This document shows positions 1,934-45,699 of a DNA stretch of 64,000 bases, piece after piece. The stretch's first letter is position 1; each line of letters begins with the position of its first letter. Below the pieces are notes generated by a model that searched no databases, was not told where the DNA came from, and saw only the letters and a list, made by a program, of their open reading frames with translations. The position numbers and the translations under genes are program-made. This DNA comes from an uncultured delta proteobacterium (GTDB lineage: Bacteria > Desulfobacterota > Desulfobacteria > Desulfobacterales > SG8-13). The stretch lies in the NCBI GenBank assembly GCA_963792945.1, contig CAWBYM010000019.1:66158-130157 (forward strand), in the 5' to 3' direction.

Positions 1934-1943
1934 CCCCCCCCCC
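1934..1943. repeat. C10 homopolymer tract in the glgP / flavin-reductase divergent intergenic region
   Basis: Read directly: cggCCCCCCCCCCgagc, ten consecutive C at 1934-1943. Confidence 0.9.
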
Positions 1944-2122
1944 GAGCGTTACCGCCTCAGAATGCCCGGCCAAGGCCGCATCCGCTGCTGTGGGTATGGC
2001 CGTCTTCAGGTTTGGATTTGTCGCTTTACGGACAAGCAATTATCGGGTAAGTGTGATCGATCAGGTTCGGTAGTGAGATCGGCTTCACACATTCTGAAAC
2101 GGTTACACAAGGAAGGTGTCGC

Positions 2123-2596: not shown

Positions 2597-2704
2597 CCCT
2601 GAGCTTTTCGTTGCGGCGGCCGGCTCAAACCGTGAAGAAAAGGTCCACAGTTGCCGGTTTGCCGGCGAATCGTAGGGGTAAGCCGCTCCATTTTTTTACC
2701 ACTG

Positions 2705-27124: not shown

Positions 27125-27508
27125 TTAACCACGCACGTGACATTCACCGCACATGATCGGTCCTTTATTTTGCTGCAGATGACAGCCTTTGCAGTTGCTG
27201 TGAAAGGCTTTGGTCAGGTTCGGGGTGTTGCCCGAATTCTTGAAATCATGACATTCCGAGCATCTCTGATCTTCCGACGATTCATCATCCAGTTTTTTGC
27301 CTTCTTCGTAAATATGGTGACATTCGTTACACTCCTCAATTCCCGCCATCTCGTTGTGCTCTTCATGGTTGAACACGGAGGGTGTGCGCTGCGGGTTGCG
27401 ATACACGCTGTTGTCGACATGGGTCATGTCGTCTTGGGAATACGCCATCACGATGGCCAAGAGGGAAACGGTCAGGGCGGCGAGGAACAGTTGGGCGGTC
27501 TTGTACAT
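27125..27508 (-). CDS. tmcA: periplasmic tetrahaem cytochrome c3 (TmcA / type II c3-like)
   Basis: Signal peptide plus four CxxCH sites (CNECH, CSECH, CKGCH, CGECH) in about 100 mature residues. ATG 27508 has AAGGAG upstream. Confidence 0.8.
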
Positions 27509-27525
27509 TTTCTTCTCCTTACCGT

Positions 27526-28884
27526 TCAAGCCTCCAAAGCTCCCGGCTTTTCCATGAGTTCGTAAATTAGATCGCCGAAAAACTTGATCTCAAGTCCGAT
27601 GCCGTAATGGTGAACGATGTCGTGCAGCCCGCTGTGGCAGTTGTGGCAGGGGGCGATCAGCACCTTGGCGCCGCGGGCCTTGGCGGCGAACAGCTGCTCG
27701 GCCTTGATGCGGTTGCCCTCGATACGTTTCATCTTGTATGGCGGGCCGCAGTTGATCACCCCCCCGCCGGCGCAACAGCAGTAGTTGTGCTCCCGGTTCG
27801 GGGTCATCTCGACCACTTTCTCGCAGACGGCATCGGCGACGTAGCGGGCCATTTCATGCAATCCGCCGCCCCGCACGACATTGCAGGGGTCATGTAGGGT
27901 TACCGGTTTGTCGTACTTTTTGGCAATTTTGATTTTGCCGTCTTTGAGCAGATCGAAATAGAACTCGATGGCATGCACGATGGGAATCGGCGGCATCCTC
28001 CACCCCAGCCAGCGATTACCCATGTCGTAGACCGACCGGAAGGCATGACCGCATTCGCCCATGACAATTTTCTTGACCTTGAGGCGGAATGCGGTTTCGA
28101 AGTGGGTGCGCTTGATTCGGCCCATCAGCTCATTGTCGCCGGAGAACATCGCCATGTCGCTGTTGTCCCACCCGATGGTGGCCGGCATGGTCCAGTTGAC
28201 CCCGGCCGCATCCATGATGACGGCTGCCTGGTAAATCAGCTGGGCCTGAAATTTGGGTTCAGGGGCGATGACGGAGTACATGATGTCGGCGCCTTCCTTT
28301 TCCAACGGGATCCTCAGGTTGGGGATCTCGGCCTGGGCCTCTTCTTCCTGCCACTGGAGCGTATCGGGCCATTCGTCTCCTTTGACCCACATCTGGTTCA
28401 TGTGGACCGAATGGCTGTGGGCGGTGTCCTGAAGATAGAGTGGTGTGGCGCCGAGGCGATGGATGATTCGTCGCACTACGCTGATGATGTAGGCGATATC
28501 GATGCCGAAGGGGCAATACTGGGCGCAGCGCTTGCACAGGTTGCACTCGGTGTGGGCGATCTCCGCCGCACGCTTTATGAAGTCAGCGTCGACCCGGCCC
28601 TTTCTTCTCAACATCTCCCACATGGTTTGTTTGACTTTGCCGACCGGGGCAAAGCGTGGATCACCGTCGTGGGAAAGATAATAGTGGCACGCCTCGGAGC
28701 AAAGACCGCAGTGGATGCAGGTCTCGACATAGGTCGCGAGCCGCGCGCCGGTTTCGCCCTTGATGACGCTGTTGATGACCTTCTCGATTTTTTCCGGCGT
28801 CAGTCGGGAGACACCGATTTCAATGCCGTCGTCGAGAGCCTTTTCTTTGCTCTTTTCCCCGATGGTTTCAGCGGGTTCAGCCAT
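27526..28884 (-). CDS. tmcB: cytoplasmic Fe-S protein of the HdrD/DsrK family with CCG domains (TmcB-like)
   Basis: Two ferredoxin-type motifs ([14 protein letters not shown]; [14 protein letters not shown]) and C-terminal Cys-rich CCG-type motifs ([11 protein letters not shown]; NYCCCAGGG; APCHNCH). Confidence 0.8.
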
Positions 28885-28950
28885 GATAACGATCTCCCGT
28901 TAGTTTAAAATAAGGTATCCGTTTCGTGGGTATCGACCACCGCCAGCGTC

Positions 28951-29610
28951 TCACCAGTCTCTGGCATGCCTGACCTTGCCGAACTCAGAACCCATGTAGG
29001 CTCTTGTGAATATGGAAAATATCATGTGGCTCAGGCGGGTGAAGGGGATGGCCACCAGCATGATCTGCCCGGCGATGATGTGCAGCACCATTATCACAGG
29101 GTAGGCGAACCATTGGTGGTAGGCCAGGAAACCGGTGACAAAAGGCGCCGCCACAATGGATAAGATAACGAAATCCGACGCCGAGGTGACGTATCGCACT
29201 TCCGGCAACTTGAGCCGGCGCAACAGGAAGAAGATGCTGCCGGCGATGACGAGTACCGTCATGACATCCGCAAGGGCATCCGGAATGGACCACCAACTGA
29301 TGCCGAAAGACTCCTCCCACAGAACGATGTGGGACAGAAGGAAAATCGGGGTGGCGATCAAACAGATGTGAAAAGTGAACGTGACTATCGTCAGCACGGG
29401 ATGCCGGCGCCAGTTCTCCGTGCCGAAAGGGGTGATCCAGTGCAGGATCGACCGGAAGCTGTAATACCAGCTCATATAGCTGAAGATGAACGGTTCTTTC
29501 AGCTTGACGAGTCGAATCAGTCGGGTCACGCGATAGAGGCAACCGCCGAAGAAAAGAACGAACGCCACCCAGGTCAACGGCCCGCTCACGAAATTATAAA
29601 TTTCATGCAT
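28951..29610 (-). CDS. tmcC: integral-membrane NarI/DsrM/HdrE-like cytochrome b subunit (TmcC-like)
   Basis: 219 aa with about 5-6 TM helices and conserved His in the helices (ILHWITPF, TFHICLIA, VLHIIAGQ). It lies between the Trp-rich and CCG proteins. Confidence 0.75.
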   Translation of the reverse strand: MHEIYNFVSGPLTWVAFVLFFGGCLYRVTRLIRLVKLKEPFIFSYMSWYYSFRSILHWITPFGTENWRRHPVLTIVTFTFHICLIATPIFLLSHIVLWEESFGISWWSIPDALADVMTVLVIAGSIFFLLRRLKLPEVRYVTSASDFVILSIVAAPFVTGFLAYHQWFAYPVIMVLHIIAGQIMLVAIPFTRLSHMIFSIFTRAYMGSEFGKVRHARDW

Positions 29611-29619
29611 GTATCCCCC

Positions 29620-30885
29620 CTATCGCTTGACCAGATCGGTTAAGGGTACGACGCGTCGAAAGAAGGAGCCTTCTTCGAGTGATTTGAATAGGATCTTGCG
29701 GCTGTCGGGGCTGAACACAGGATCCCAGACCGCTTCGCAAGAATGGGACCACAGGATGTCGTTTACAGCAATGGTATACATGCCCTTTTTTTCCACTTTG
29801 GCGGCCACAAATTGATTGTCGGGGCTGATGACCGGCTTCCAGGCCATATCGAAGGTGCTGGACCATGGGACCCCGTCGACGGCGATGGTATATTTTCCGT
29901 TATGTTTGGCAACGACGGCGATCCGGCTTTCGTCGGGACTGAACACCAGGTCCGTGACCAGTTCGTTGAATGTGATCTTCCAGGGGGTGCCATCCACGGC
30001 TACGGTCCACAGGCCGTATTTGGGAGCGACGAGGGCGGCCAGTTTCCCCCCGAGGGGCCCGAATGTCTGGTGCCACAGCTGCACGAACCGCCGTTCCCAC
30101 AGGGCGTCGCCGTTTTCGGCCAGCATCCATTTTCCCTCGATGCGAACCGGTGCTACGACGGAATGCTTCCGAGGATGAAAAATTGGTTCCCAGACGCTGC
30201 TGTATGTTTTATCCCAGGGGTTCCCGTTGACGGCGATCGTGTAGTCGTAGAGGTTGAGTCGGACTTCGGCGGCCAGATTCTGGCCATCGGGGCTGAGGGC
30301 CAGGTGCCATACATTGACGAAATGGCTGTCCCACGCCTTTCCTTGGAGAGCGGCGGTGAATGTTCCTTCCTGGAACTTGTGCACTTGGCCGGAATCGGCT
30401 GTTTTGACTTGAACAGCCCCTGCGGTTCCGGTGCCATCCGGGCTCAGAGCGAAGTATGTGATGTTGTCAAACGTGTTTTCCCACGCGATATCGTTCAGCG
30501 CCATTCCATACTGCATGTCCTTTTGGAACGCTATCGCAATATTCTCTCCGGAGCGGTCGAAGAGGGGATTCCAGACGTAACCGAACGTGTTTTCCCAAGC
30601 CGTTCCGTCGACGGCCACCGTCCACTCGCCTGTATCCGATACGATGGCGGCCAGGCGGCCGGATGGCGAAAATCTAAGGTTCCAGGCCTTGTCGAAAACG
30701 GCGTCCCATGGATCCCCGTTTACACAGACGGTGAACTGGCCTTCGTCGATGTTGGTGATAGCGGCAATTTTCTCCCCGTCGGGGCTGACATAGGGTTCTT
30801 CGACCCACCGGAATTTTTCCGACCAGTCGCCGAACGGAACCTGTTTCTCACCGGAATCCCAATCCCAGTTCTTCGCATCGGCCAT
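29620..30885 (-). CDS. tmcD: tryptophan-rich repeat protein (TmcD-like, probable beta-propeller)
   Basis: About 9 tandem ~45-aa units of the form (N/D)G.(A/P)W(D/E)..F...W.(P/L).FSPDG..(A/I)A..V. ATG 30885 (MADAKNWDWD) is preceded by GAGGTGGAG. Confidence 0.7.
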   Translation of the reverse strand: MADAKNWDWDSGEKQVPFGDWSEKFRWVEEPYVSPDGEKIAAITNIDEGQFTVCVNGDPWDAVFDKAWNLRFSPSGRLAAIVSDTGEWTVAVDGTAWENTFGYVWNPLFDRSGENIAIAFQKDMQYGMALNDIAWENTFDNITYFALSPDGTGTAGAVQVKTADSGQVHKFQEGTFTAALQGKAWDSHFVNVWHLALSPDGQNLAAEVRLNLYDYTIAVNGNPWDKTYSSVWEPIFHPRKHSVVAPVRIEGKWMLAENGDALWERRFVQLWHQTFGPLGGKLAALVAPKYGLWTVAVDGTPWKITFNELVTDLVFSPDESRIAVVAKHNGKYTIAVDGVPWSSTFDMAWKPVISPDNQFVAAKVEKKGMYTIAVNDILWSHSCEAVWDPVFSPDSRKILFKSLEEGSFFRRVVPLTDLVKR

Positions 30886-31112
30886 TTCTCCACCTCTCTT
30901 TCGACCTATTGAGCCGTGGCACAAGGCACAGACACTCGCTGAGTTCTATTCTATAGCGGATCGGGTACAAAAATGCAACACATGCCGGCAAGGTTATTGG
31001 ATATGTCTCATAAAATCCCGACATCGTTTGGAAATATGTAACAGATTGTAATCAAACGATAAAAACTGTTGCCGCTGGCCCCAACAAAGCCGAAATCAGA
31101 GGCTGATTTCTG

Positions 31113-31141
31113 TTGACAAGGATAGGCCAAGCCGTTATGTA
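31113..31141 (+). promoter_or_regulatory. candidate sigma70-type promoter for the hdrA operon, abutted by an 8-bp inverted repeat
   Basis: TTGACA (31113-31118), 17-nt spacer, TATGTA (31136-31141). GAAATCAG-agg-CTGATTTC at 31092-31110 lies immediately upstream. The -10 element is weak. Confidence 0.3.
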
Positions 31142-31272
31142 TCCAATTTCCTTTTCTGACTGCCGCTGTTGCCACGCTGGGGTCAGGACATAATCATTCC
31201 GGTCGGAAGGTTGTTTTCGAACCGTTACATACAACCCTCGGACTGGTTATCCAGCACGCAGGAGAACGAAGA

Positions 31273-34200
31273 ATGTCACAAGATGTCATCGGATCCGTAA
31301 TGGTCGTCGGCGGAGGTATTGCCGGAATGCAAGCCGCACTGGATCTGGCCGATTCAGGTTACTACGTGTTCCTCGTCGAGAGGGGGCCCTCTATCGGCGG
31401 GGTCATGGCGCAACTCGACAAGACGTTTCCCACCAACGACTGCGCGATGTGAATTATCTCGCCGAAACTGGTCGAGGTCGGCCGGCACCTGAACATAGAG
31501 TTGAGAACCCTCAGCGAAGTCAAGGACATCAAAGGGGAAGTCGGGAATTTCGAAGTCCAGATCACCCAGCACCCTCGATACATCAATGAAAACCTCTGTA
31601 TTGGCTGTGGTGCCTGCGCGGAGAAATGCCCTAAGAAAATTGTCGACACCTATAACGCCGGGTTGTCCAAGCGGCGCTCGGCCTACGTCGAATACGCCCA
31701 GGCGGTGCCGCTGAAATACTGCATCGATGGTGACAGCTGCATCTACCTGCAGAAGGGGAAGTGCGGCGCCTGCAAAAAAATCTGCCCGGTCGATGCGGTC
31801 GACTTCGATCAGAAGCCGCAGACCTCCACCGTCCAGGTCGGTTCGGTGGTGCTGGCTCCGGGATACCAGGCCTTCGATCCTTCTCGGTTCGATAACTACA
31901 ATTACACCAAGCTGCCCAATGTCATCACCTCGGTGGAGTTCGAACGCATGCTGTCGGCCTCCGGTCCGACCCAGGGGCATGTCACCCGCCAGTCCAAAGA
32001 CCGTCGCGAACCGAAAAAGATCGCCTGGTTCCAGTGTGTCGGCTCCCGCGACGTGAATCGCTGCGACAACGCTCACTGCTCATCGGTCTGCTGCATGTAC
32101 GCTATCAAGGAAGCGGTCATCGCCAAGGAACATATCGGTGATCAGTTGGACTGCGCCATTTTTTACATGGATATGCGTACCCACGGCAAGGAGTTCGAAC
32201 GATTCTACAACAGCGCCCGGGACAAAAACGGAGTCCGCTTCATCCGCAGCCGGGTGCATTCCATCGACCCGGTGGGCGACACCGATGATCTGGAAGTCCG
32301 TTATATAAATGAAGCCGGAGAAATAGCATCCGAAGTCTTCGATCTCATCGTTTTGTCGGTGGGGATGGAAACCTCTCCCCAGGTGATCGACCTTGCCAAA
32401 CGCCTCGGAATCGAATTGACGGCCGGAAACTTCTGCAACACGGCTTCTTTCGCGCCGGTGACGACATCCCGCAGCGGCATATTCGCCTGCGGAGCCTTTC
32501 AGAGCCCCAAGGACATCCCCCAAGCCGTGGTCGATGCCAGCGCGGCGGCGGCAGCGGCGGGTGAAGCCTTGGCCGCTGCTCGAAACACGCTCACTAAAAC
32601 CGCCGAAGTCGTTCCCGAAACCAACGTCGGCGGCGAGCGTCCCCGGATCGGGGTCTTCGTCTGTCGCTGCGGCATCAATATCGCCGGGGTCGTAGACGTG
32701 CCGTCCGTGGCCGAGTATGCTGCCACGCTGCCTTTTGTGGAGTTTGCCACCGACAACCTGTATTCCTGCAGCCAAGACACCCAGGAGACGATTTCAAAGA
32801 TTATCAAGGAGAAAAACCTGAACCGCGTGGTCGTGGCGGCCTGCACTCCCAAAACTCACGAACCATTGTTTCAGGAAACCCTCATTAATGCAGGGCTGAA
32901 CAAATACCTGTTTGAAATGGCCAATATCCGCAACCAGGACTCCTGGGTCCACAAGAACACGCCGGATCTGGCCACACGTAAGGCCAAGGATCTCGTTCGC
33001 ATGGCGGTCTCGAAAGTCGCCCTGACCGAGCCCCTCAAGGAGGCCGAACTGCAGGTCAACCAGACCGCCGTGGTCATCGGCGGCGGTATATCCGGCATGG
33101 CCGCCGCCCGCAGCCTGTCCCGCCAAGGATATGACACCTGCATCGTCGAGCGCGGCGATCGATTGGGCGGCCAGGCCCTCAACCTTTTCCGCACCGCCAA
33201 AGGCGAGGATGTCCAGGAGAAACTGGGCGCCCTGATCGCAGACGTAGAAGACGACGAAAAAATCAAGGTCCACCTGAACGCTGCCGTCAAAAAGGTGGAG
33301 GGGTTTGTGGGCAGTTTCAAGACCACCCTGGCCATCAATGGCCATGAAGAAGAGCTCGAACACGGGGTGGTGATCATGGCTACCGGTGGATCGGCTTTCG
33401 AACCCGATGAATACCATTACGGGGACGACCCCCGGATCGTCACCAGCCTTGAGCTCGACCGCAAGCTGATTGACGCCGATCCGTCCTTAAGGGATATCGG
33501 CACCGCCGTATTCATCCAATGCGTGGGATCCCGTGAACCCCATCGGCCTTACTGCTCGCGGGTGTGCTGCACCCATTCGGTGGACAATGCCCTGGCGCTC
33601 AAGCGCTTGAATCCGAACATGGACGTATTTGTCCTTTATCGTGACGTGCGCACCTATGGCGAACGCGAACGGCTCTACAAGGAAGCCCGGGAGGCCGGTG
33701 TCATTTTCATCCGTTTCAGCCTCGAAGGCAAACCCGAGGTCGACCTCAGAGACGGTAAACTTCAGGTGCGGGTGACCGACCATATTCTGGGACGGCCCAT
33801 CGAACTGGAAACCGACCTGCTGACTCTGGCGACTGCGGTTCTGCCCAACAAGGACGAGCAACTGGCCGCTTTTTTCAAAGTTCCCCTGAACGCCGACGGG
33901 TTTTTCGTGGAGCGCCATGCCAAACTGGGGCCCTCGGAATTTGCCACCGACGGGGTCTTTCTGTGCGGATTGGCTCACTATCCCAAGCCGATCGATGAGG
34001 CCGTCGCCCAAGCTCAAGCCGCTGCATCCCGTGCGGTGACGCTGCTGGCGCGCAAATCGATTTTCACCAGCGGGGCTGTGGCCAAGACCGATCCATTTCT
34101 GTGCAGCCGCTGTGGGGTGTGCGTTTCCATTTGTCCATACTCGGCACCGTCTTTCACCGAATCCGGTCCACAGGCCGGAAAAGCGGAAATCAATCCGGTG

Positions 34201-34320
34201 CTCTGCAAGGGATGCGGCCTTTGTGTCGCCTCCTGCCGCTCCGGCGCCATTCATTTGAAGGGTTTTGACAACAACCAGATTTTTGCCCAGATCTTTTCCT
34301 TCGGCGAAGACTTGGGGTAA
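31273..34320 (+). CDS. hdrA: HdrA-like FAD/Fe-S flavoprotein, large (1015 codons), selenocysteine-containing (UGA at 31450-31452)
   Basis: ATG 31273 (GGAG upstream) opens [82 protein letters not shown], in frame with the 31501 track ORF (228 nt = 76 codons). The TGA sits at the Cys of the HdrA NDC(S/A)MCIL(A/S)PK motif. A second Rossmann motif ([16 protein letters not shown]) and several CxxCxxCxxxCP ferredoxin motifs follow. Confidence 0.85.
31456..31478 (+). promoter_or_regulatory. candidate bacterial SECIS stem-loop for the hdrA UGA
   Basis: AUCUCGCC-GAAACU-GG(U)CGAGGU is an 8-bp stem with one G-U pair and one bulged U. It starts 4 nt after the UGA. Folded by eye only. Confidence 0.4.
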
Positions 34321-34343
34321 CAGAAAAATAAAAGGAGTGATCC

Positions 34344-34775
34344 ATGTCGGAATGGGAGCCGAAAATAGCCGCCTTCCTGTGCAACTGGTGCAGTTACGGT
34401 GCGGCGGATCTGGCCGGTGTCGGCCGGATGGAATATCCGCCTAACATCCGCGTCATCCGCATTCCCTGCACCGGGCGGATGAGCCCCAAGTTTTTTCTGG
34501 CCGCCTTACGCGAAGGTGCCGACGGTGTCTGGGTGTCCGGGTGACATCCCGGCGAATGCCATTACCTGGAAGGTAATTACTACGCCCGCAGAAAGTTCGC
34601 TTTGTTCCAGAACCTGATGGAACATATGGGGATCGAACCCGGCAGACTGCAATTTTCGTGGGTTTCGTCCGCCGAGTCCACCAAGTTTGTCGAGGTCGTC
34701 AATGACGTCACGGCAGCGGTCAAATCGTTGGGGCCGAATCGAACCTTCGTAAAAACCGAGAGCAAGGTGGCTTAG
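34344..34775 (+). CDS. mvhD: MvhD-like (methyl-viologen-reducing hydrogenase delta subunit family) protein, selenocysteine-containing (UGA at 34542-34544)
   Basis: The track ORF stops at TGA 34542, but the frame continues open to TAG 34773-34775 (143 codons). The sequence reads ...[75 protein letters not shown]...[17 protein letters not shown] replaces the first Cys of the conserved GCHxGDCHY motif. Confidence 0.85.
34551..34586 (+). promoter_or_regulatory. candidate SECIS stem-loop for the mvhD UGA
   Basis: GGCG...AUUACC-UGGAA-GGUAAU...CGCC is a perfect 6-bp apical stem (34561-34577) closed by an outer 4-bp helix, 7 nt after the UGA. Folded by eye only. Confidence 0.35.
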
Positions 34776-34776
34776 C

Positions 34777-35721
34777 ATGTCATACATCGCCAAGATAAAA
34801 GAAGTTTCCGCAAAAATCCTGAAAAACTGTACGGTGGAGATGGTCATCGGCTTTCGGAAGGGGACCGTGCCGATGATGAACGAGCCATGCTTTGCCAGGG
34901 CGCCGGAAGATGTCGACAAGTTCGTTTGGGACGGCAGTTGCGGTATCAATCTGGTCAATTATTTGAGCGACCGCACAGAAAAGATCGGCATCGTTGCCAA
35001 AGGTTGCGATTCCCGCAACATCGTCACCCACATTCTCGAAAACAAGATCAAGCGCGAGCAGCTGTACATCATCGGAGTTCCCTGCTTGGGGATGATCGAC
35101 AGACGCCGCATTTCCGCCAGTTTTGGATCGGAAATCGCCGAAGTTCGGGAAGATGGAGACCAGGTCACCGTCAAAGGTGCCGGCAAAGAGAAAACATTCA
35201 TCCGGACCGACGTTATGCAGGAAAACTGCACGATTTGCATTCATCGCAATCCAGTCATCTTCGATGAGATGATCAGCGATCCTGTGGAGGAACAAAAGGA
35301 TGTTGACCGTTACGCGGATGTGCGTCGCATCGAAGCCCTGGCGCCTGAAGGGAAGTGGGACCTGTTTGAGGGAATGCTGGCTTCCTGCATCCGGTGCTAC
35401 GCCTGCCGCAATGCCTGCCCGCTGTGCTACTGCCCGACCTGCTTCGTTGACGAGCATCGTCCCCAGTGGGTCGGCAAAAGCCAGGATCCGGTCGATATCC
35501 GAACCTTTCATTTCCTGCGGGCTTATCATTGCGCCGGCCGCTGTACCGACTGCGGGGCCTGCGAAAGGGCCTGCCCGGTAGGCATTCCGATGCGGCAGTT
35601 CACTAAAAAGCTCGAGAAGGACTGCCTCGAGCTGTTTGAATGGGAAGCCGGTATGTCCTTGGACAATCGTCCGGTGCTCGATTTTTACCGGCCCAACGAC
35701 CCGGACGAATTTATTAAATAA
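34777..35721 (+). CDS. Fe-S cluster protein (two 4Fe-4S ferredoxin-type motifs; FrhB/hydrogenase Fe-S subunit-like N-terminal part)
   Basis: CIRCYACRNACPLCYCPTC and CTDCGACERACPVG. The ATG is 1 nt after the mvhD stop. Confidence 0.8.
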   Translation: MSYIAKIKEVSAKILKNCTVEMVIGFRKGTVPMMNEPCFARAPEDVDKFVWDGSCGINLVNYLSDRTEKIGIVAKGCDSRNIVTHILENKIKREQLYIIGVPCLGMIDRRRISASFGSEIAEVREDGDQVTVKGAGKEKTFIRTDVMQENCTICIHRNPVIFDEMISDPVEEQKDVDRYADVRRIEALAPEGKWDLFEGMLASCIRCYACRNACPLCYCPTCFVDEHRPQWVGKSQDPVDIRTFHFLRAYHCAGRCTDCGACERACPVGIPMRQFTKKLEKDCLELFEWEAGMSLDNRPVLDFYRPNDPDEFIK

Positions 35722-35769
35722 GCACGCTGTTTGGTTCTTGACGGCGGGCTAAGTATCGGCGAATTTTTT

Positions 35770-35801
35770 CACCAAACACCAAACACCAAAACACCAAACA
35801 C
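35770..35801 (+). repeat. CA-rich heptamer tandem repeat (CACCAAA x4) in an intra-operon spacer
   Basis: caccaaa caccaaa caccaaaa caccaaa cac, read directly, about 30 nt upstream of the ATG at 35831. Confidence 0.8.
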
Positions 35802-35830
35802 TACACAATCAGCATCCAAGGTATCCACCC

Positions 35831-36892
35831 ATGAAGCTTGTAAAGATCGACAAGAAATCGTTGAGCGCCGATCTCGACCGTCTCCGTGAAACCTATCGCC
35901 TGTTCGGGCCGGTCAAAGGTCCGCAGTATCACGATTTCCAGCCGCTGGAGCCAGGCCAGGCCCCTGATTTCGACTGCCTGAACACGCGCATGTCTCCCAA
36001 AGCAATGATTTACCCTCAGTCGGAGACGATGTTCGAATACAGTCTCGAAGAGAATCGAGAAGACCACCATCGGTTGAGAGAGGTGCCCGCGGATGAGACG
36101 CCACGAGCGGTTTTTGGCATCCGGCCTTGTGACATCAAAGCGTTCTTGTTGGTCGGCAAGAATTTCGACACGCCCGAATACAAAGATCCGTATTGGATCA
36201 AGGCGTTTGAGGCCACGACGTTCATCGGCTATGCCTGCAATGATCCCTGCAGCACCTGCTTCTGCACCACTGCCGGCTGCGGTCCGTTTCACGAGGAAGG
36301 CCTGGATATTCTTTTGGTGGACACCGGCGAGGCCTGGCTGGCGAAGATCCTCACCGACAAGGGTGAAAAACTGGCCCAAGCGGCCGGGTGGAACACCCCG
36401 GCACCAGATGCCGCAGCCCCGCTTGCCGCGCTGAGAAAGGCCGCCGAAGACAAGATTGTCTCCCATGTGACCACGGACCGGCTCAAAGACCAGGATACCA
36501 TTTCGCTTTATGACGCATCATTCTGGGAAGACGTATCGTTTTCATGCATCAACTGCGGGACCTGCACTTTCGTATGCCCCACTTGCTGGTGCTTTGACAT
36601 CCAGGATGAAAGCCGCGGTAAAAGCGGCCGGCGCATGCGTAACTGGGACAGCTGCATGTTTCCGCTGTTTACCCTGCATGGGTCCGGCCACAATCCCCGG
36701 GGAACGAAGCTCCACCGGGTTCGGCAGCGGTTCATGCACAAGCTCAAATATTACGTCGATAAATACGATGAAGGCATTCAGTGCGTAGGGTGCGGCCGCT
36801 GTGTGCGTTTATGCCCGGTAAACATAGATATTCGCCGGGTGTGTGAACTGATGAACAGCCATGGTGAGGCGGCTGTTTGTGAGGTCAAGTGA
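35831..36892 (+). CDS. Fe-S subunit related to sulfhydrogenase beta (HydB) / anaerobic sulfite reductase subunit A (AsrA)
   Basis: 353 aa. VFGIRPCDIKAF, CINCGTCTFVCPTCWCFD, and CVGCGRCVRLCPVNIDI. Confidence 0.8.
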   Translation: MKLVKIDKKSLSADLDRLRETYRLFGPVKGPQYHDFQPLEPGQAPDFDCLNTRMSPKAMIYPQSETMFEYSLEENREDHHRLREVPADETPRAVFGIRPCDIKAFLLVGKNFDTPEYKDPYWIKAFEATTFIGYACNDPCSTCFCTTAGCGPFHEEGLDILLVDTGEAWLAKILTDKGEKLAQAAGWNTPAPDAAAPLAALRKAAEDKIVSHVTTDRLKDQDTISLYDASFWEDVSFSCINCGTCTFVCPTCWCFDIQDESRGKSGRRMRNWDSCMFPLFTLHGSGHNPRGTKLHRVRQRFMHKLKYYVDKYDEGIQCVGCGRCVRLCPVNIDIRRVCELMNSHGEAAVCEVK

Positions 36893-36911
36893 CGATAGAG
36901 GAGGAATTTTC

Positions 36912-37757
36912 GTGCTGAATCCATATTTGCCATATCCGGTCCGTATCGATCAGATAACCACCGAAACAGAAGACCGGAATCTGAAGACTTTCAAACTTGT
37001 TTTCCTGAACCCGGATGATGAGGAAAAATTTGCCTACAAAGCCGGTCAATTTGCCGAACTGTCCCTCGCCGGCAAAGGGGAAATCCCGATCGGCATCGCC
37101 TCATCACCATCGGAGAAGGGGTTTCTCCTGTTCACGGTCAACAAGGTCGGCTTGGTCTCTTCCGCGCTGCACAACATGAATGTCGGTGATGTCATGGGGG
37201 TGCGGGGGCCGCTGGGGAACTGGTATCCGTGGGAGGTCATGGAAGGCCAGAACATTCTTATTATCGGCGGCGGTTTTGCCTTTACGACCCTGCGTTCCTC
37301 GATCGTCTATATGTTGGACCCTATCAACCGTCCGAAATTCAGAGACATACATGTCGTATACGGTGCTCGGTCACCAGGCATGCTGCTCTACCGGGATGAA
37401 CTGGCGGCGTGGGAGAAACGCACCGACATCCACATGCACATCACCGTGGATGCGACTGACGATCCGGCTTGGAAATACAATACCGGATTCGTTCCAATGA
37501 TTACTGAAAAGAAAGCGCCGCAGGCCGACGGCGGCACCTTCGCGATCGTGTGTGGTCCGCCGATTATGATAAAATTTACCCAGCCGGTCCTGGAAAATCT
37601 CGGTTATGCGGAAGACCACATCATCATGTCGTTGGAGAACCGTATGAAGTGCGGTATCGGCATCTGCGGTCGCTGCAATATCGGCAAAGAGTTCGTGTGC
37701 AAAGACGGACCGGTATTCACGCTGGAACAACTCAACCATATGCCCAAAGAATATTGA
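36912..37757 (+). CDS. FAD/NAD(P)H-binding oxidoreductase with C-terminal 2Fe-2S site (HydG / AsrB / NfnA-like)
   Basis: GTG 36912 is preceded by AGAGGAGGA. Ferredoxin-NADP reductase-like fold (GQFAELSLAGKGEIPIGIASSP; ILIIGGGFAFTTL) and MKCGIGICGRCNIG. Confidence 0.8.
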   Translation: MLNPYLPYPVRIDQITTETEDRNLKTFKLVFLNPDDEEKFAYKAGQFAELSLAGKGEIPIGIASSPSEKGFLLFTVNKVGLVSSALHNMNVGDVMGVRGPLGNWYPWEVMEGQNILIIGGGFAFTTLRSSIVYMLDPINRPKFRDIHVVYGARSPGMLLYRDELAAWEKRTDIHMHITVDATDDPAWKYNTGFVPMITEKKAPQADGGTFAIVCGPPIMIKFTQPVLENLGYAEDHIIMSLENRMKCGIGICGRCNIGKEFVCKDGPVFTLEQLNHMPKEY

Positions 37758-37794
37758 TCCTCCGCCCTTTTCAGGTTCCGTCCCGACGCGGAAA

Positions 37795-37821
37795 GCTGGC
37801 TGGAAAAATTTTCCAGCCAGC
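37795..37821 (+). terminator. perfect 13-bp inverted repeat after the hdr-type operon (no U-tract)
   Basis: GCTGGCTGGAAAA-a-TTTTCCAGCCAGC, 38 nt after the stop at 37757. It could be a terminator/processing hairpin or an operator. Confidence 0.35.
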
Positions 37822-37853
37822 CGCCATGGCGGGAGAAAACTTGCCTTTTAAGG

Positions 37854-37883
37854 TTGACATCGGAGGGCCAATACGTTAATAAT
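37854..37883 (+). promoter_or_regulatory. candidate sigma70 promoter for dsrC
   Basis: TTGACA (37854-37859), 17/18-nt spacer, TAATAAT (37877-37883). AAGGAGG lies 7 nt upstream of the ATG at 37958. Confidence 0.4.
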
Positions 37884-37957
37884 CCAACTTTGAATATTTT
37901 ACCAGGCGGACTGGCAATAAGCCATTGGAATAATTAAATTTTAAAGGAGGTTATTGT

Positions 37958-38275
37958 ATGCCGACAGTTGAATTCATGGGGAAGTCATTTAGCGTAGACG
38001 AGGACGGGTTCATCGATTCTTATACCAACTGGAGCCAAGAGTGGGTCCAGTGGGTCAAGAAAGAAGAAGGGATCGACGAACTCAACGAAGAGCACCAGAA
38101 GGTGATCAAGGTCCTTCGTGAATACTACGAGAAGAATGGTATTGCCCCGATGGTTCGGGTACTTTCCAAGGTTACCGGTTTCAAACTGAAACATATCTAC
38201 GAGCTGTTTCCCTCCGGACCGGGCAAGGGAGCTTGTAAAATGGCCGGTCTTCCAAAACCGACCGGGTGTGTATAA
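37958..38275 (+). CDS. dsrC: DsrC (dissimilatory sulfite reductase-associated sulfur carrier)
   Basis: 105 aa. Near-identical architecture to Desulfovibrio DsrC: GKSFSVDEDGF...NGIAPMVRVLSKVTGFKLKHIYELFPSGPGKGACKMAGLPKPTGCV, with both redox Cys (C-x10-C-V at the C-terminus). Confidence 0.92.
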   Translation: MPTVEFMGKSFSVDEDGFIDSYTNWSQEWVQWVKKEEGIDELNEEHQKVIKVLREYYEKNGIAPMVRVLSKVTGFKLKHIYELFPSGPGKGACKMAGLPKPTGCV

Positions 38276-38315
38276 AACCCATCCGACGGATAAAGACCCG
38301 ACGATTTATTACGGG

Positions 38316-38347
38316 AAAAGGCCCTGCATGCTCTGCAGGGCCTTTTC
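38316..38347 (+). terminator. intrinsic (symmetric, potentially bidirectional) terminator after dsrC
   Basis: AAAAGGCCCTGCA-tgctc-TGCAGGGCCTTTT is a 9-bp GC-rich stem flanked by an A-tract and a T-tract. Confidence 0.6.
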
Positions 38348-38366
38348 TGCATTGAGGAGATGTCCC

Positions 38367-38768
38367 ATGGTTGAGCTCACCGTTCATACCAGTGCCAGGA
38401 CGGAATTCATCGATGTCACGGCCGAGGTTCAGGAAGCTGTCGCTGCGACTGGGGTCGAAAACGGTCTCTGCATGCTCTACGTCCCGCACACCACCGCCGC
38501 TCTCACCATAAATGAAAGCGCCGATCCCAGCGTCAGGGCCGACATTTTAAAAATCATAAACGACATCGTTCCCTGGGATGACGGCTACCGTCACCTGGAA
38601 GGCAACTCCGCCGCCCATATCAAAACCACGCTTGTCGGATCTTCGGAAATGCTCATGATCGAAAGGGGCCGCCTGGTCCTGGGTACGTGGCAGGGCATTT
38701 TCTTTTGTGAGTTCGACGGACCCAGAACACGGAAACTGCACGTGAATCTGATACCGGCTGTAAAATAA
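38367..38768 (+). CDS. yjbQ: YjbQ/UPF0047 family protein (secondary thiamine-phosphate synthase-like)
   Basis: MVELTVHTSARTEFIDVTAEV...LYVPHTTAALTINESADPSV...EGNSAAHIKTTLVGSS...GTWQGIFFCEFDGPR. ATG 38367 has GAGGAGA upstream. Confidence 0.85.
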   Translation: MVELTVHTSARTEFIDVTAEVQEAVAATGVENGLCMLYVPHTTAALTINESADPSVRADILKIINDIVPWDDGYRHLEGNSAAHIKTTLVGSSEMLMIERGRLVLGTWQGIFFCEFDGPRTRKLHVNLIPAVK

Positions 38769-38934
38769 TCGACGGGGATCCCCCGGACTGTCTGGGGAGA
38801 TTCAATGCATTCGGCCATCCCGGCAGGTAACGAACAATGCAGACGGTGATCATCACATGCCATTGCTCCGGCTCTACCGGAGATCATTGATTCCCGCTTT
38901 CTAAACAATCGGAAGCAAAGGGGGGGCGGATCGC

Positions 38935-39387
38935 ATGATTCTTGACGATACGGACCGACGCATATTGAACCGGATACAGACACGCTTTCCGATTTTGCTG
39001 CGACCCTATAAAGCGATTGCCGATGACCTGGGGCTGAGCGAAGACGATGTCATTGGACGTGTCAGGAAACTGAAGGAAAAAGGTGTCATCCGACGGATAG
39101 GCGGGAACTTTGTGCCGGAAAAAGTCGGATTTGTGAGCACACTTTGTGCCGCGAAAGTCCCCGAGGACGCGATCGACCGTTTTGCGGCTGTCGTCAACCG
39201 CTATGCTGGTGTGACGCACAATTATCAACGCGACCATGAGGTCAATATCTGGTTTACCTTTATCGCGCCGTCGATGACGGAAATCGAATCCAATCTCGAG
39301 CAGATTTCGAGGGAGACGGGTGTCGGCGGCATCCTGAATTTACCGGCGACCCGGGTTTTCAAAATCAAGGCCAAGTTCGACCTGTAA
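38935..39387 (+). CDS. Lrp/AsnC-type protein of the siroheme decarboxylase AhbA/AhbB (NirD/L/G/H) family
   Basis: LDDTDRRILNRIQTRFPILLRPYKAIADDLGLSEDDVIGRVRKLKEKGVIRRIG...VTHNYQR...N(I/L)WFT pattern. Confidence 0.65.
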   Translation: MILDDTDRRILNRIQTRFPILLRPYKAIADDLGLSEDDVIGRVRKLKEKGVIRRIGGNFVPEKVGFVSTLCAAKVPEDAIDRFAAVVNRYAGVTHNYQRDHEVNIWFTFIAPSMTEIESNLEQISRETGVGGILNLPATRVFKIKAKFDL

Positions 39388-39421
39388 TTTTAGTTTCCCG
39401 TGATGTCATCTGGAAAGTCAA

Positions 39422-40306
39422 ATGAAAAAAGGGGCGACGCCTGTTCGCCCCGTGGATCACTTCCAAATCAAACCCTTAGACTCGTTTCGGTGCGCCATGC
39501 GTGATATCCGTTTGGCTCTAGCGGTGGCCAACTGCCCAGTGGCAGCCATAGAAAAAAATCTGGAAAGCGTGGCCCGATGGTCCGAGAAGGCCGCCCAGCA
39601 GGGAGCGGAGGTGATTTGTTTCCCCGAGTTGAACGTCACCGGATATGGCGCCGGCAAGTCGCCGGCCCAAACGGTTCTGCCGATACCCGGTCCTGAGACC
39701 GAGAGGCTGGTTGAAATTGCCCGGGCATCATCGCTGGTGGTTCTCGCGGGAATGGCGGAAAAGGATAAACAGGGCCGGGTTTTCGCCACGCACCTGGTTG
39801 CCACACCCCAAGGATTGGCAGGCATTTACCGAAAGCTTCACGTGGCACCGCCGGAACAGGCGATTTTTAGCCACGGCAACCGAATTTTAATCCACGCCCT
39901 CCGGGGGGTGACCTTCGGCATTCAGCTCTGTTATGATGCTCACTTCCCGGAGCTCGCCACCCGCATGGCTCTGGAAGGGTGTGACCTGATTGTCATCCCG
40001 CATGCTTCCCCACGGGGGAGCCCCAAGAAAAAATTGGCCTCCTGGATGCGCCACCTGTCGGCGCGGGCCTTCGACAACGGCGTCTTCGTCGCGGCCTGCA
40101 ACCAGGTCGGCGGCAACGGCAACGGGCTCGAGTTTCCGGGGGTTGCCGTGGTTATCGGCCCCGACGGTCGTATCCTGCAACAATGTGTTGACGATCAGGA
40201 GGGGCTTCTCCTGGTTGACCTCAAGTCCACGCTCTTGTCCAGCGTGAGGCGGCACCGGATGAGATACTTTTTGCCCCACCGCCGCCCGGATGCTTACCGA
40301 CTTTAG
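39422..40306 (+). CDS. carbon-nitrogen hydrolase (nitrilase superfamily)
   Basis: ICFPELNVTGY (catalytic Glu), YRKLH (Lys), and GIQLCYDAHFPE (Cys). The start is possibly at ATG 39497 (MRDIRLALAV). Confidence 0.8.
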   Translation: MKKGATPVRPVDHFQIKPLDSFRCAMRDIRLALAVANCPVAAIEKNLESVARWSEKAAQQGAEVICFPELNVTGYGAGKSPAQTVLPIPGPETERLVEIARASSLVVLAGMAEKDKQGRVFATHLVATPQGLAGIYRKLHVAPPEQAIFSHGNRILIHALRGVTFGIQLCYDAHFPELATRMALEGCDLIVIPHASPRGSPKKKLASWMRHLSARAFDNGVFVAACNQVGGNGNGLEFPGVAVVIGPDGRILQQCVDDQEGLLLVDLKSTLLSSVRRHRMRYFLPHRRPDAYRL

Positions 40307-40372: not shown

Positions 40373-41362
40373 TCAATTCGGGATTGATCGGTGCCGCCGA
40401 TAGTAAGCCACCGAGTCGAGAGTATAGATGAGCAGGGCAGACCAGATCAGCACGAAAGTCCACAACTGAACTGTGCGGAACGGTTCTCCGTATGCGAAGA
40501 CGGCCAGCAGAAAAGTACAGCTGGGTGCAATGTACTGCAGAATGCCGATCGTCGAAAAATGGATCCGGCGAGCGCCGATCGTAAACAGCAGCAAGGGCAG
40601 GGCCGTGACCAGGGCGGCTGCAAGCAGCAAGAGGTCGATCCGGAAGTCGCCTTTCAGAAACGCCCCTCCGCCTTGAACATGAACATATAAAAGGTAGAAC
40701 ACTGCCGGGCAGGACAGCAACAGTGTTTCAACCGTCAAACCGACCAGCGCGTTGACTTCCGCCACCTTGCGTATCAAGCCGTAAAACCCGAAAGTGAGTG
40801 CCAGAAACAGGGCGATCCAGGGCGGGTGGCCGATGTCGATGGTCATGTAGATGACGCCGATGGCTGCCAGGCTGACCGCCGTAATCTGGGCCGGGCGCAG
40901 CCGTTCCTTCAGAAACAACAGACCCAAGACCACGTTGAAAAGAGGATTGATATAGTATCCCAGAGAGGTCTGGAGGATCAGGTCGTTGTTGATGGCCCAG
41001 ATGAATACGAACCAGTTGCCGGCGACCAGCAGCGTTGTTGACAGCAGGATCAGAATGGTCCGGCGGGATGTGAGAGCCGCTTTGAATTCCTTTCGGCGCC
41101 GGGTCAACAAGACCAGCGGCAGGAGGAACAGGAAGGACCACACCATGCGGTGCATCAGGATTTCGAAGGGCGGGACCGAGCGCAGCGCCTTGAAGTAAAT
41201 CGGGCTCAATCCCCAAATCAGAAAGGCGCCGACCGCGCAGGCCGCGCCGGCCAACGATTCCTTTTGAGCAGGGCTGTTGCGGTTTTTTTGAGGATTCACG
41301 CTTGACTCCTCCGATTGGATATCTTTTTGCCGCCCGAGTGTTCGAGGCGAAATCCGCACCAT
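40373..41362 (-). CDS. rarD: EamA/RarD-type DMT-superfamily transporter
   Basis: GAFLIWGLSPIYFKAL...PFEILMHRMVWS and 10 hydrophobic segments. The start is taken at ATG 41362; the track ORF extends 47 codons further upstream. Confidence 0.75.
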   Translation of the reverse strand: MVRISPRTLGRQKDIQSEESSVNPQKNRNSPAQKESLAGAACAVGAFLIWGLSPIYFKALRSVPPFEILMHRMVWSFLFLLPLVLLTRRRKEFKAALTSRRTILILLSTTLLVAGNWFVFIWAINNDLILQTSLGYYINPLFNVVLGLLFLKERLRPAQITAVSLAAIGVIYMTIDIGHPPWIALFLALTFGFYGLIRKVAEVNALVGLTVETLLLSCPAVFYLLYVHVQGGGAFLKGDFRIDLLLLAAALVTALPLLLFTIGARRIHFSTIGILQYIAPSCTFLLAVFAYGEPFRTVQLWTFVLIWSALLIYTLDSVAYYRRHRSIPN

Positions 41363-41534
41363 AGTCGAACCGCCAAAGGAAGTCAAAACTGAATCCAGAA
41401 TAGGTTGACTTTGTTTGACACTGGAACCGAGCTTTCCTATACTGCAGCGATATCGGCAACCGTGGCATCCGATTGCCGCTGTCAGCGTTTTCCGGTTGTC
41501 CACGGAGGATGCTACATTCTTTAGGAGAGGAAAC

Positions 41535-42341
41535 GTGTCCTGGAGCGATTATTTTACTAATGAATACAAAAACGGCGTCGCGTGGTTGACCCTCAACCGA
41601 CCGGAAAAGCGCAACGCCATGGATTTTGATTTCTTCGAAGGGCTGAAGGCGCTTTTCAGGCAGTTTGATGCCCGTACCGACGTCCGGGTCGTGGTGGTAA
41701 AGGCGAATGGTAAAAGCTTTACGGCCGGGACCGATCTGACGGCGGCGACGTCGATCTTTGGGAGCGGCGCGGCAGATGATCGCGACGCCTTGTTCCGGGC
41801 GATACGGGATCTTCAGCGGGGAATCCAGGCGATAGAGGATTGCTGCAAACCGGTTATTGCCGCTGTTCACGGACACTGCATCGGCGGTGGCGTCGATATG
41901 ATATGTGCCTGCGACATACGCCTGGCGGAGAAATCCTCCGTGTTCAGTATCCGAGAGACCCGCATGGGGATAATCGCTGATTTGGGGACCCTGCAACGAC
42001 TGCCCCGGATCGTTGGAGAGGGCTGCAGCCGGGAGCTGGCCTTTACCGGTCGGGACTTCGGTGCGCCGGAGGCCTTCGCCATGGGATTGGTCAACCGGGT
42101 TTGCGACGGCCGATCACAGCTGTACGATGAAGCTGAAGCCCTTGCCCGCCAGATAGCGGACAATCCGCCGTTAACCGTCCAGGGGGTCAAGGATGTCATC
42201 AACTACAGCCGTGATGCCGGCGTAGAAGCCGGTTTGAGGTACACCGCCCAGAAGAATGCCGCTGCGCTCCTTTCAGAAGATCTAATTGAAGCGATAACGG
42301 CTTTCAGGGAAAGGCGCCCACCGCACTTCAAGGGGAAATAG
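41535..42341 (+). CDS. enoyl-CoA hydratase/isomerase (crotonase) family protein
   Basis: VAWLTLNRPEKRNAM, FTAGTDL, and AAVHGHCIGGGVDM oxyanion-hole motifs. GTG 41535 is preceded by AGGAGAGG. Confidence 0.85.
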   Translation: MSWSDYFTNEYKNGVAWLTLNRPEKRNAMDFDFFEGLKALFRQFDARTDVRVVVVKANGKSFTAGTDLTAATSIFGSGAADDRDALFRAIRDLQRGIQAIEDCCKPVIAAVHGHCIGGGVDMICACDIRLAEKSSVFSIRETRMGIIADLGTLQRLPRIVGEGCSRELAFTGRDFGAPEAFAMGLVNRVCDGRSQLYDEAEALARQIADNPPLTVQGVKDVINYSRDAGVEAGLRYTAQKNAAALLSEDLIEAITAFRERRPPHFKGK

Positions 42342-42425
42342 CCGTAACCAACAGACAAGAAAGCGTCAAATGTCGACGTGGACGTTACAGTCTGCAAGCG
42401 ATAATCCTGCCGGAAAGGGGTATGC

Positions 42426-43580: not shown

Positions 43581-43626
43581 GACCAAACAGTGCTTAGCTT
43601 CTCGGCACCTGAGGTAACCTCATCCC

Positions 43627-45588: not shown

Positions 45589-45699
45589 CTCGGCAGGGCA
45601 TGTTTCCGGCGATTTTGTTCCTGGCCCTGAGAAACAAGAGCGATAACCGTACGTGACACTCTTTCCATAGATGCCGAACATTGACAGGCGAGGTGACAG

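Follow-up and report, generated by a model that had tools for sequence, protein, structure and literature searches.

A selenocysteine-containing hdrA-mvhD-flxCBA operon adjoining dsrC in the Desulfobacterales, a candidate Flx-Hdr electron-bifurcating system with no operon-encoded HdrBC

For marine sulfate reducers of the complete-oxidising kind, it is not settled how the cytoplasmic pools of NAD(P)H and ferredoxin connect to the reduction of sulfite, and DsrC is thought to be the hub. In the present work, we have analysed a redox locus in a 64,000-nucleotide (nt) stretch of DNA (hereafter the window) from an uncultured delta proteobacterium of the order Desulfobacterales (GenBank assembly GCA_963792945.1, contig CAWBYM010000019.1, positions 66,158 to 130,157 of the forward strand). 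Listing and translation of the open reading frames (ORFs) place ten genes between positions 27125 and 38275, 4 of them on the minus strand (tmcDCBA) and 6 on the plus strand (hdrA-mvhD/flxD-flxC-flxB-flxA, then dsrC). The region consists of three separate transcription units, viz. tmcDCBA, the hdrA-flxDCBA operon, and dsrC with a promoter of its own. All ten genes lie at, or a few codons off, the positions given in a preliminary description of this DNA, which had also called the region an island; that term does not suit three transcription units set amid housekeeping genes and not distinct in composition. Our main subject is the hdrA-flxDCBA operon, whose subunit set, judged from the encoded proteins, is that of FlxABCD plus HdrA without HdrBC. 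Domain and profile searches agree with its earlier description as a bifurcation-type HdrA and MvhD core that is joined to an NAD(P)H module but lacks a CCG subunit.

The first gene of the operon, hdrA (31273..34320, plus strand), begins with an ATG at 31273 behind the sequence AGGAGA and encodes a fused HdrA dimer of 1015 amino acids (aa) with two thioredoxin reductase (TrxR)/FAD domains. Its sole frame break is an in-frame TGA at 31450-31452, which falls in the motif TNDCAM-U and corresponds to residue 60, a selenocysteine (Sec60); we take the same TNDCxxU position to be Sec in Methanococcus HdrA. The match to the HdrA of Methanothermococcus (5ODC) is strong (E 1.4e-191), and the alignment runs in three permuted stretches. 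A TrxR/FAD domain into which a ferredoxin domain is inserted spans residues 9-383. The HdrA N-terminal domain occupies residues 455-609, a second FAD domain, which is sHdrA-like (6TJR), residues 600-924, and the C-terminal ferredoxin domain residues 826-1010. The first TrxR domain contains the motif CCMYAIK, in which Lys279 takes the place of K409 in 5ODC and of K280 in BamE, and it alone keeps the CxxC/U pair (Cys57-x-x-Sec60), whose counterpart in BamE is Cys59-Cys62. The second FAD domain reads CCTHSVD at this place, without the lysine, and is probably structural. BamE, a subunit of class II benzoyl-CoA reductase (BCRII), has been described as a fused HdrA dimer with extensive domain permutation (bioRxiv 10.64898/2026.04.10.717634), and when set against that published description the predicted layout of the window HdrA is that of a BamE-like fused dimer.

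The gene mvhD/flxD (34344..34775, plus strand), with which hdrA is contiguous, encodes a [2Fe-2S] adaptor of ordinary length (143 aa; PF02662, E 6.6e-53), and it too contains a TGA, at 34542-34544, which corresponds to Sec67 in the motif VSG-U-HPGECH. At the expected distance 3' of both TGAs lie hairpins with the appearance of selenocysteine insertion sequence (SECIS) elements, viz. CUGGUCG-AGGU-CGGCCGG in hdrA (31468..31485, plus strand) and AUUACCU-GGA-AGGUAAU in mvhD (34561..34577, plus strand). The folding energy of these hairpins is not significant by itself (z 0.0 and -0.3). Their identification comes from the fold together with comparison of orthologues: the hairpin nucleotides CATTACCTGGAAGGTAATTA and AAACTGGTCGAGGTCGGCCGGCA are invariant, at synonymous sites too, among 49 distinct mvhD and 26 distinct hdrA orthologues, and the codons flanking both hairpins vary freely. 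In orthologues that carry TGT or TGC (Cys) in place of TGA (loci L025, L031, L038, L042, L049, L059, and L068 of the survey described below), synonymous changes break the stems and leave the amino acids unchanged; the mvhD hairpin of the Cys variants is disrupted by a synonymous TAC-to-TAT change, and the hdrA hairpin is relaxed in L025, L031, and L068. Because the hairpins are conserved in this comparative sense and decay in the Cys orthologues, we call both TGAs Sec codons with SECIS elements, an assignment made from sequence comparison. The Cys-containing loci belong to one clade, which has swapped Sec for Cys in MvhD and, where the 5' end of the gene is visible (L025, L031, and L068), in HdrA as well; the seven loci make up a clean natural series of Sec-to-Cys reversion.

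The remaining three genes of the operon encode the subunits that would feed electrons to MvhD. The product of flxC (34777..35721, plus strand) is an Fe-S adaptor of the FdhB/FrhB fold with a Fer4_8 domain and a C-terminus that matches FdhB (7bkb_E). Its AlphaFold2 model (predicted local distance difference test score 77.5) has as its best Foldseek matches 7bkb_E and 8rvu_E (template modelling scores 0.70 and 0.69), so that the FlxC fold matches FdhB of both the Fdh-Hdr (7BKB) and the Elp-Hdr (8RVU) supercomplexes. In methanogen complexes of this kind, FdhB wires the donor enzyme to MvhD-HdrA. Association of formate dehydrogenase with MvhD has been reported (PMC6085437). The gene flxB (35831..36892, plus strand) encodes a HydB/AsrA-like poly-Fe-S subunit (PF17179, Fer4_22, E 1e-33) whose best match is the beta subunit of Pyrococcus sulfhydrogenase I (9nez_B, E 2.8e-40), and flxA (36912..37757, plus strand) a HydG/AsrB-like NAD(P)H/FAD/[2Fe-2S] subunit with FAD_binding_6 (PF00970), NAD_binding_1 (PF00175), and DHODB_Fe-S_bind (PF10418) domains, whose best match is the gamma subunit of the same enzyme (9nez_C, E 2.8e-52). 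The flxA ORF opens at 36861, and its likely start is a GTG at 36912 behind GAGGAGG. Both proteins score far below the equivalog cut-offs of the enzymes that they resemble (HydB 159 against 750 bits, HydG 175 against 650, AsrA 132 against 323, and AsrB 156 against 289), and the catalytic partners of HydBG and AsrAB (hydrogenase alpha/delta and AsrC) were not found in the window. Assignment of the pair as sulfhydrogenase HydBG or sulfite reductase AsrAB was rejected on these two grounds. Searches of the PDB with the operon proteins returned no Flx-Hdr or BamE structure. The 109-nt spacer between flxC and flxB (35722-35830) contains a CA-rich run of near-repeats at 35775-35806, CACCAAACACCAAACACCAAAACACCAAACAC; in relatives this spacer ranges from <20 to ~540 nt, though identity in the genes on either side of it is mostly 59-89%.

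Scanning species-representative genomes with FlxC recovered 317 relatives, and the best 80 loci, from ~79 species, were examined. All are Desulfobacterales-type metagenome-assembled genomes, all are at least 69% identical to the window in FlxC, and among them are relatives of the organisms that partner with methane- and ethane-oxidising archaea. The order hdrA-mvhD-flxC-flxB-flxA is invariant in all 80 loci. Identities are mostly 59-96% for MvhD and FlxCBA (FlxB 55% in two loci), 75-96% for MvhD taken singly, and 56-89% for HdrA.

The core differs among these loci in the form of HdrA, which could be assigned for 54 cores, window included. The plain fused dimer, laid out as in the window, accounts for 18 cores (again counting the window). 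In a further 19 cores the first ~100 residues of HdrA are swapped for a NuoG-like 2Fe-2S/4Fe-4S domain (Fer2_4/Fer4), and nuoE- and nuoF-like genes always precede this NuoG-fused hdrA, with gaps of 9-50 nt except for 150 nt in L013. The remaining 17 cores are HdrL-type, a type named in Desulfobacterium autotrophicum (PMC2702500), with a GltD/NfnB-like insertion (Fer4_20 and Pyr_redox_2), and are found together with flxCBA and dsrC in, for instance, L003, L007, L010, L028, L037, and L046. The NuoG-fused cores (e.g., L002, L005, L006, L009, L011, L013, and L015) have lost the Rossmann FAD motif and the CxxU; the presumed bifurcating domain may thereby have lost its FAD, and the NuoF-like flavin may have taken over bifurcation.

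A second kind of accessory module was found in 8 loci (L025, L031, L042, L053, L068, L070, L072, and L077), where a QmoC-like and an HdrB-like gene stand on the same strand just upstream of hdrA (in L025, the two occupy positions 363-3003). The QmoC-like protein has 588 aa and the QmoC/HdrE-C architecture of a NarI-like domain and two dicluster domains, and the HdrB-like protein has 291 aa and two CCG domains. In L025, L031, L068, and L070, the genes are tightly coupled, with gaps of -8 to +15 nt from one another or from hdrA. The pair accompanies 7/18 plain cores and 0/36 of the others, a difference that is suggestive only, as the loci are phylogenetically clustered. In its architecture this split membrane module is similar to a QmoC combined with an HdrB, or to proteins of the HdrF/EMO type.

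The gene dsrC (37958..38275, plus strand; PF04358, E 7.6e-36) begins 200 nt 3' of flxA, and its product ends in CKMAGLPKPTGCV, with both redox cysteines in place (a Cys-X10-Cys-Val end); this tail is identical in 39 related loci and one residue off in 3. By fold match and by the presence of both C-terminal cysteines, it is a canonical, functional-type DsrC and not a TusE/RspA-like protein. A strong hairpin 3' of flxA (37781..37834, plus strand; -32.9 kcal/mol, z = -5.4, an energy reached by 0/200 shuffles) is a probable transcript end, and behind it lies a predicted dsrC promoter, TTGACA-18-AATAAT (37854..37883, plus strand), which agrees with the consensus at 11/12 positions and ranks first among the sigma-70 matches within 13.6 kb. 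The TTGACA, the -10 box, and an AAGGAGG ribosome-binding site align across 43 related loci. The gene lies directly 3' of flxA in 43 of the 60 informative loci, with gaps of 111-247 nt and both cysteines always present, and the adjacency spans plain, NuoG-fused, and HdrL cores. The linkage between dsrC and flx is thus old, widespread within the order, and non-operonic. Downstream of dsrC is a block of yjbQ, ahbA, and a C-N hydrolase gene (38268..40306, plus strand; TIGR00149, NF040708, and nitrilase-family matches), which is context outside the redox system. The ahbA gene encodes the alpha subunit of siroheme decarboxylase; the listed yjbQ ORF overlaps the end of dsrC, but as its family match begins only with residue 36, translation probably starts farther downstream. 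In one dsrC-less clade (L016, L021, L048, L057, L066, and L071), an rseC-like gene lies 3' of flxA, followed by divergent nuoG-N-terminal-like, nuoF-like, and nuoE-like genes, and the HdrL-type hdrA has MTAP and amidohydrolase genes upstream.

The four genes on the minus strand are, by their family scores, a true Tmc operon, all four subunits exceeding the NCBIfam equivalog cut-offs (TmcA 160 against 114 bits, TmcB 845 against 735, TmcC 342 against 240, and TmcD 590 against 440). In the order of transcription they are tmcD (29620..30924; NF045725), a Trp-rich beta-propeller-like subunit with a probable ATG start at 30885 behind GGAG; tmcC (28951..29610; NF045723, PF02665), a NarI-like membrane cytochrome b subunit; tmcB (27526..28884; NF045724), a cytoplasmic Fe-S protein with Fer4_8 and a CCG domain (PF02754); and tmcA (27125..27529; NF045722, PF02085), a periplasmic tetrahaem cytochrome c3 with four CxxCH motifs and a probable ATG start at 27508. 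The genes are separated by gaps of 9 and 66 nt and one 4-nt overlap. TmcC scores 35.7 bits against the qmoC model (cut-off 300), and QmoC is absent from the window. A promoter scan and reading of the sequence of the divergent region between tmcD and hdrA (30925..31272) gave two candidate hdrA promoters, TTGACA (31113-31118) followed after 17 nt by TATGTA (31136-31141), and TTGCCA-17-AATCAT at 31169-31197. The window shares the element TTGACAAGG of this region with L001, and boxes like it are found in L003 and L024, which is weak evidence for a promoter. The window, L001, L003, and L024 have tmc and hdrA as divergent neighbours; in L069 nuoEF intervenes and tmc is farther upstream. The slot between miaA and hdrA is occupied by tmc in four loci and by the QmoC-like/HdrB-like pair in two (L053 and L072), and is empty in six.

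The genes present, the decoding of Sec, the domain layouts, the conservation, and the separateness of the transcription signals are observations on the locus and its relatives. We tentatively interpret the operon as the form that Flx-Hdr, a system of flavin-based electron bifurcation, takes in the Desulfobacterales, with a confidence that stops a little short of even. In the scheme that we propose, NAD(P)H would be oxidised at FlxA (FAD, [2Fe-2S]), and electrons would pass through the HydB-like FlxB and the FdhB/FrhB-fold FlxC to the [2Fe-2S] cluster of MvhD/FlxD and on to the bifurcating FAD of HdrA, in its first TrxR domain (Lys279, Cys57-x-x-Sec60). The low-potential electron would then leave through the ferredoxin-like domains of HdrA to ferredoxin, and the high-potential branch, for which the operon has no gene, would correspond to a plug-in position, taken by HdrC/HdrB in methanogens and by BamD in BCRII. 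The direction of electron flow, the bifurcation itself, and the identity of the high-potential acceptor are predictions from sequence comparison. The cassette probably carries substantial electron flux, because it is strongly conserved and costs two selenocysteines.

For the high-potential outlet, we tentatively favour a separately encoded CCG protein (TmcB, DsrK, or unlinked HdrBC/HdrD) that would reduce the disulfide or trisulfide of DsrC, a proposal to which we attach slightly less than even weight. It is favoured because plain cores in other genomes recruit a protein of the HdrB type, because DsrC is accepted as the "bacterial heterodisulfide," and because DsrC is bound by the Flx-Hdr complex of Desulfovibrio vulgaris. 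Since 8 relatives carry HdrB-like and QmoC-like genes beside hdrA, a CCG partner for the hdrA-flx core is realistic on grounds of gene content, and a role of this operon as a DsrC partner appears plausible. The preliminary description had suggested DsrC as the partner, directly or via TmcB, and had looked to conservation of the neighbourhood for support. Linkage to dsrC lends it some support, as it is not confined to the source genome and extends over 43/60 informative species-representative loci with all three HdrA forms; adjacency to tmc (4/44) and co-transcription with dsrC do not.

Several observations weigh against this proposal. TmcB aside, no CCG subunit was found among the proteins scanned from the operon and the 64 kb around it, and tmc is present in the flank of 4/44 informative relatives. 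With its own promoter behind the hairpin, dsrC is predicted not to be co-transcribed with hdrA-flx, and because that promoter is conserved and the hairpin strong, no co-expression of the two is implied. Eighteen informative loci, mostly of one clade, are without dsrC, and in 34 of the 37 dsrC-linked loci with enough sequence yjbQ, ahbA, and the C-N hydrolase gene are all present; because dsrC travels with these genes, its adjacency to flx may reflect inherited synteny rather than functional linkage. Lastly, 36/54 typed cores have a second NAD(P)H-type module and no thiol-reducing module, and the conserved core may, because of this second pyridine-nucleotide module, not be a disulfide reductase.

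The strongest alternative, which we regard as unlikely though deserving of serious weight, draws on several of these observations and holds that the core is a pyridine-nucleotide/ferredoxin hub with a non-thiol third partner, dsrC being nearby through inherited gene order. The partner would be a second NAD(P)(H) site, as in an Nfn/Stn-like transhydrogenase, or the menaquinone/cytochrome pool reached via membrane modules. The 19 NuoG-fused cores preceded by NuoE and NuoF, and the 17 cores with a GltD/NfnB-like insertion that together with the NfnA-like FlxA resembles NfnAB, speak for the former; the NarI-type membrane domain of the QmoC-like protein, as in the quinone-linked HdrE, QmoC, and EMO-type proteins, speaks for the latter. 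The separate dsrC promoter, the unrelated genes with which dsrC travels, and the whole clade that is without it fit both. The core in the window, however, is plain, with a single pyridine-nucleotide site and no second site for a transhydrogenase, and plain cores pair with an HdrB-like protein with two CCG domains, the known chemistry of which is disulfide reduction. Moreover, on established thermodynamics NAD(P)+ does not qualify as the high-potential acceptor when bifurcation starts from NAD(P)H. If the partner were non-thiol, the Flx-Hdr annotations in metabolic models of the Desulfobacterales would need revision.

Somewhat less probable again is that the operon belongs to a canonical Flx-Hdr that draws its HdrBC or HdrD from genes at another place in the genome, in which case the earlier label "HdrBC-less" would apply to the operon alone. 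For the operon that label stands, the Pfam domain scan having found neither HdrB nor HdrC among its genes; it does not carry over to the complex, as methanogens routinely encode hdrA and hdrBC apart and do not need their co-localisation (PMC6085437, Table 1 footnote). Genomes of the Desulfobacteraceae are rich in hdr paralogues; the 15 Hdr genes of D. autotrophicum are spread over nine loci, including hdrD1-5 (PMC2702500). The Hdr/Flox cluster of Syntrophobacter fumaroxidans has HdrD in place of HdrBC (PMC5947623). On the other side, no HdrB-like gene lies in the inspected 64 kb, and the core persists without hdrBC in ~70 species and has recruited alternative modules, which argues that it has no fixed HdrBC partner.

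The modules found in relatives also admit a broader possibility, which we consider improbable, that the core is a universal NAD(P)H/ferredoxin bifurcation cassette with an exchangeable high-potential port and that plain cores dock a membrane module of cytochrome b and CCG protein, viz. TmcBC here and the QmoC-like/HdrB-like pair in relatives. If true, this would be a membrane-associated, Se-dependent enzyme joining NAD(P)H, ferredoxin, the periplasmic cytochrome/quinone pool, and DsrC, an arrangement that is not described for sulfate reducers. A shade less probable still is the specific proposal that Tmc itself is the docking partner, with TmcB/TmcC taking the high-potential electron, or delivering electrons, and so linking the periplasmic cytochrome c pool with NAD(P)H, ferredoxin, and DsrC. 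The divergent tmc/hdrA neighbours of the window and three relatives agree with it, as do the filling of the miaA-hdrA slot by either tmc or the analogous QmoC-like/HdrB-like pair, and a match of the Fe-S part of the QmoC-like profile to the N-terminal domain of TmcB (E 7e-8). Against this, tmc is a separate divergent operon that is nearby in so few relatives, its association with plain HdrA is not significant (3/18 against 2/36 for the other types), and the HdrB-like profile does not detect TmcB. Direct reduction of DsrC by HdrA at a FAD-proximal Cys57-x-x-Sec60 selenenylsulfide, thioredoxin reductase-like and with no CCG subunit, is very improbable in spite of the CxxU pair beside the FAD in a TrxR-fold domain, the strict maintenance of Sec together with its SECIS, and the adjoining dsrC, as Cys59-Cys62 of BamE are an internal relay near an Fe-S cluster and not a substrate site (bioRxiv 10.64898/2026.04.10.717634) and as the NuoG-fused cores have lost the CxxU segment and yet have dsrC adjacent in 17/19 cases (the other two contigs end too soon).

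In the wider window, base composition is flat and the flanks consist of housekeeping genes, on which grounds a genomic island was ruled out; annotated flank genes include miaA, alr, ald, ppdK, thiolase, yjbQ, ahbA, and a C-N hydrolase gene, and the window also holds dynamin-like GTPase genes and arginine-catabolism-like genes. A regular expression for the CCG motif proved too crude (TmcB reads CCCAGGG) and was replaced by a profile search; no window ORF matched an HdrB-like profile built from the relatives, and TmcB is the sole CCG protein among the window proteins scanned, in keeping with what had been described. A Bam or other aromatic reductase partner was rejected: neither the BamB/C tungsten AOR module nor BamD (HdrBC-like) nor CoA-ester genes were found in the window or the 80 related loci, and a search of the window genes turned up none for aromatic degradation. 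Neither the Rfam nor the tRNA scan of this DNA gave an RNA feature. Downstream of the redox genes, two ORFs of 422 and 406 aa on the minus strand (40728-41996 and 42366-43586) match no Pfam or NCBIfam family and adjoin two tandem dynamin-like GTPase genes (653 and 588 aa; 43627-47466, plus strand). Between 48001 and 50000, the GC content drops to 0.47, against 0.53-0.59 elsewhere, and a solute-binding protein gene and small ORFs are found there.

The idea that DsrC is the partner of such an operon is not new. Reduction of DsrC has been proposed as a function of Flx-Hdr, and binding of DsrC by the complex of D. vulgaris has been reported (PMC10504309 and PMC10553843, citing Ferreira 2023; PMC5539420). 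A model in which Flx-Hdr and DsrC form a hub has been published (PMC5539420, PMC10553843, PMC10504309), also with Tmc included (PMC5539420, PMC5947290, PMC10553843), and related clusters in Seep-SRB genomes have been labelled Flx-Hdr (PMC5539420, PMC5947290). As early as the 2009 genome paper on D. autotrophicum HRM2, hdrL1-mvhD-...-dsrC was read as an electron route from NADH to sulfite (PMC2702500). In the literature searched, we did not find the BamE-type nature of this HdrA, the order-wide non-operonic linkage to dsrC, or the exchangeable third-partner modules.

Among known systems, FlxABCD-HdrABC of D. vulgaris (DVU2399-2404; Ramos 2015, as cited in PMC10553843 and PMC10504309), compared here by its description, shares with the window FlxA, FlxB and FlxC, FlxD (MvhD), and HdrA, as well as the proposed NADH-driven bifurcation to ferredoxin and DsrC. 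By that description, it differs in that the window lacks hdrB/hdrC, its HdrA is a fused dimer of 1015 aa and not a protein of ~650 aa, HdrA and MvhD are selenoproteins, the gene order is hdrA-flxDCBA, and dsrC adjoins. The S. fumaroxidans Hdr/Flox system (PMC5947623), a known variant of Flx-Hdr with a non-canonical Hdr part, whose Flox proteins are formed constitutively, has HdrD and two separate hdrA genes, whereas the window has one fused hdrA and no CCG protein in the operon. The HRM2 cluster HdrL1-MvhD-...-DsrC (PMC2702500), from a member of the same bacterial order, has a Sec-containing HdrA-type protein and MvhD followed by dsrC; the window HdrA is plain, without the GltD/NfnB-like insertion, and the equivalence is drawn from the published description of the HRM2 cluster.

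With BamE/BamF (bioRxiv 10.64898/2026.04.10.717634) the window shares a fused, permuted HdrA dimer with its bifurcating FAD in the N-terminal TrxR domain, a lysine at ~280, CxxC(U) at ~57-62, a second FAD domain without the lysine, and an MvhD-type selenoprotein adaptor, and the NuoE/F/G-like modules attached in relatives recall BamGHI. Unlike the Bam system, the window is without the BamB/C tungsten enzyme and BamD, its input module is FlxABC in place of BamGHI, and its MvhD has 143 aa, BamF being >100 aa longer. The methanogen Mvh/Fdh/Elp-HdrABC supercomplexes (5ODC, 7BKB, 8RVU) provide the best sequence match to the HdrA domains, and have the MvhD adaptor and the FdhB fold of FlxC in common with the window; their donors are H2 or formate, whereas NAD(P)H would enter here via HydB/HydG-like subunits, HdrBC is absent from the operon, and HdrA is fused where theirs is dimeric. 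QmoABC differs by its set of two HdrA-like flavoproteins and a membrane subunit QmoC, a QmoC-like gene being found in 8 relatives only. Among the related loci the core of the operon is constant, and the third partner is one of three: a CCG/membrane pair, NuoEF, or an NfnB-like insert.

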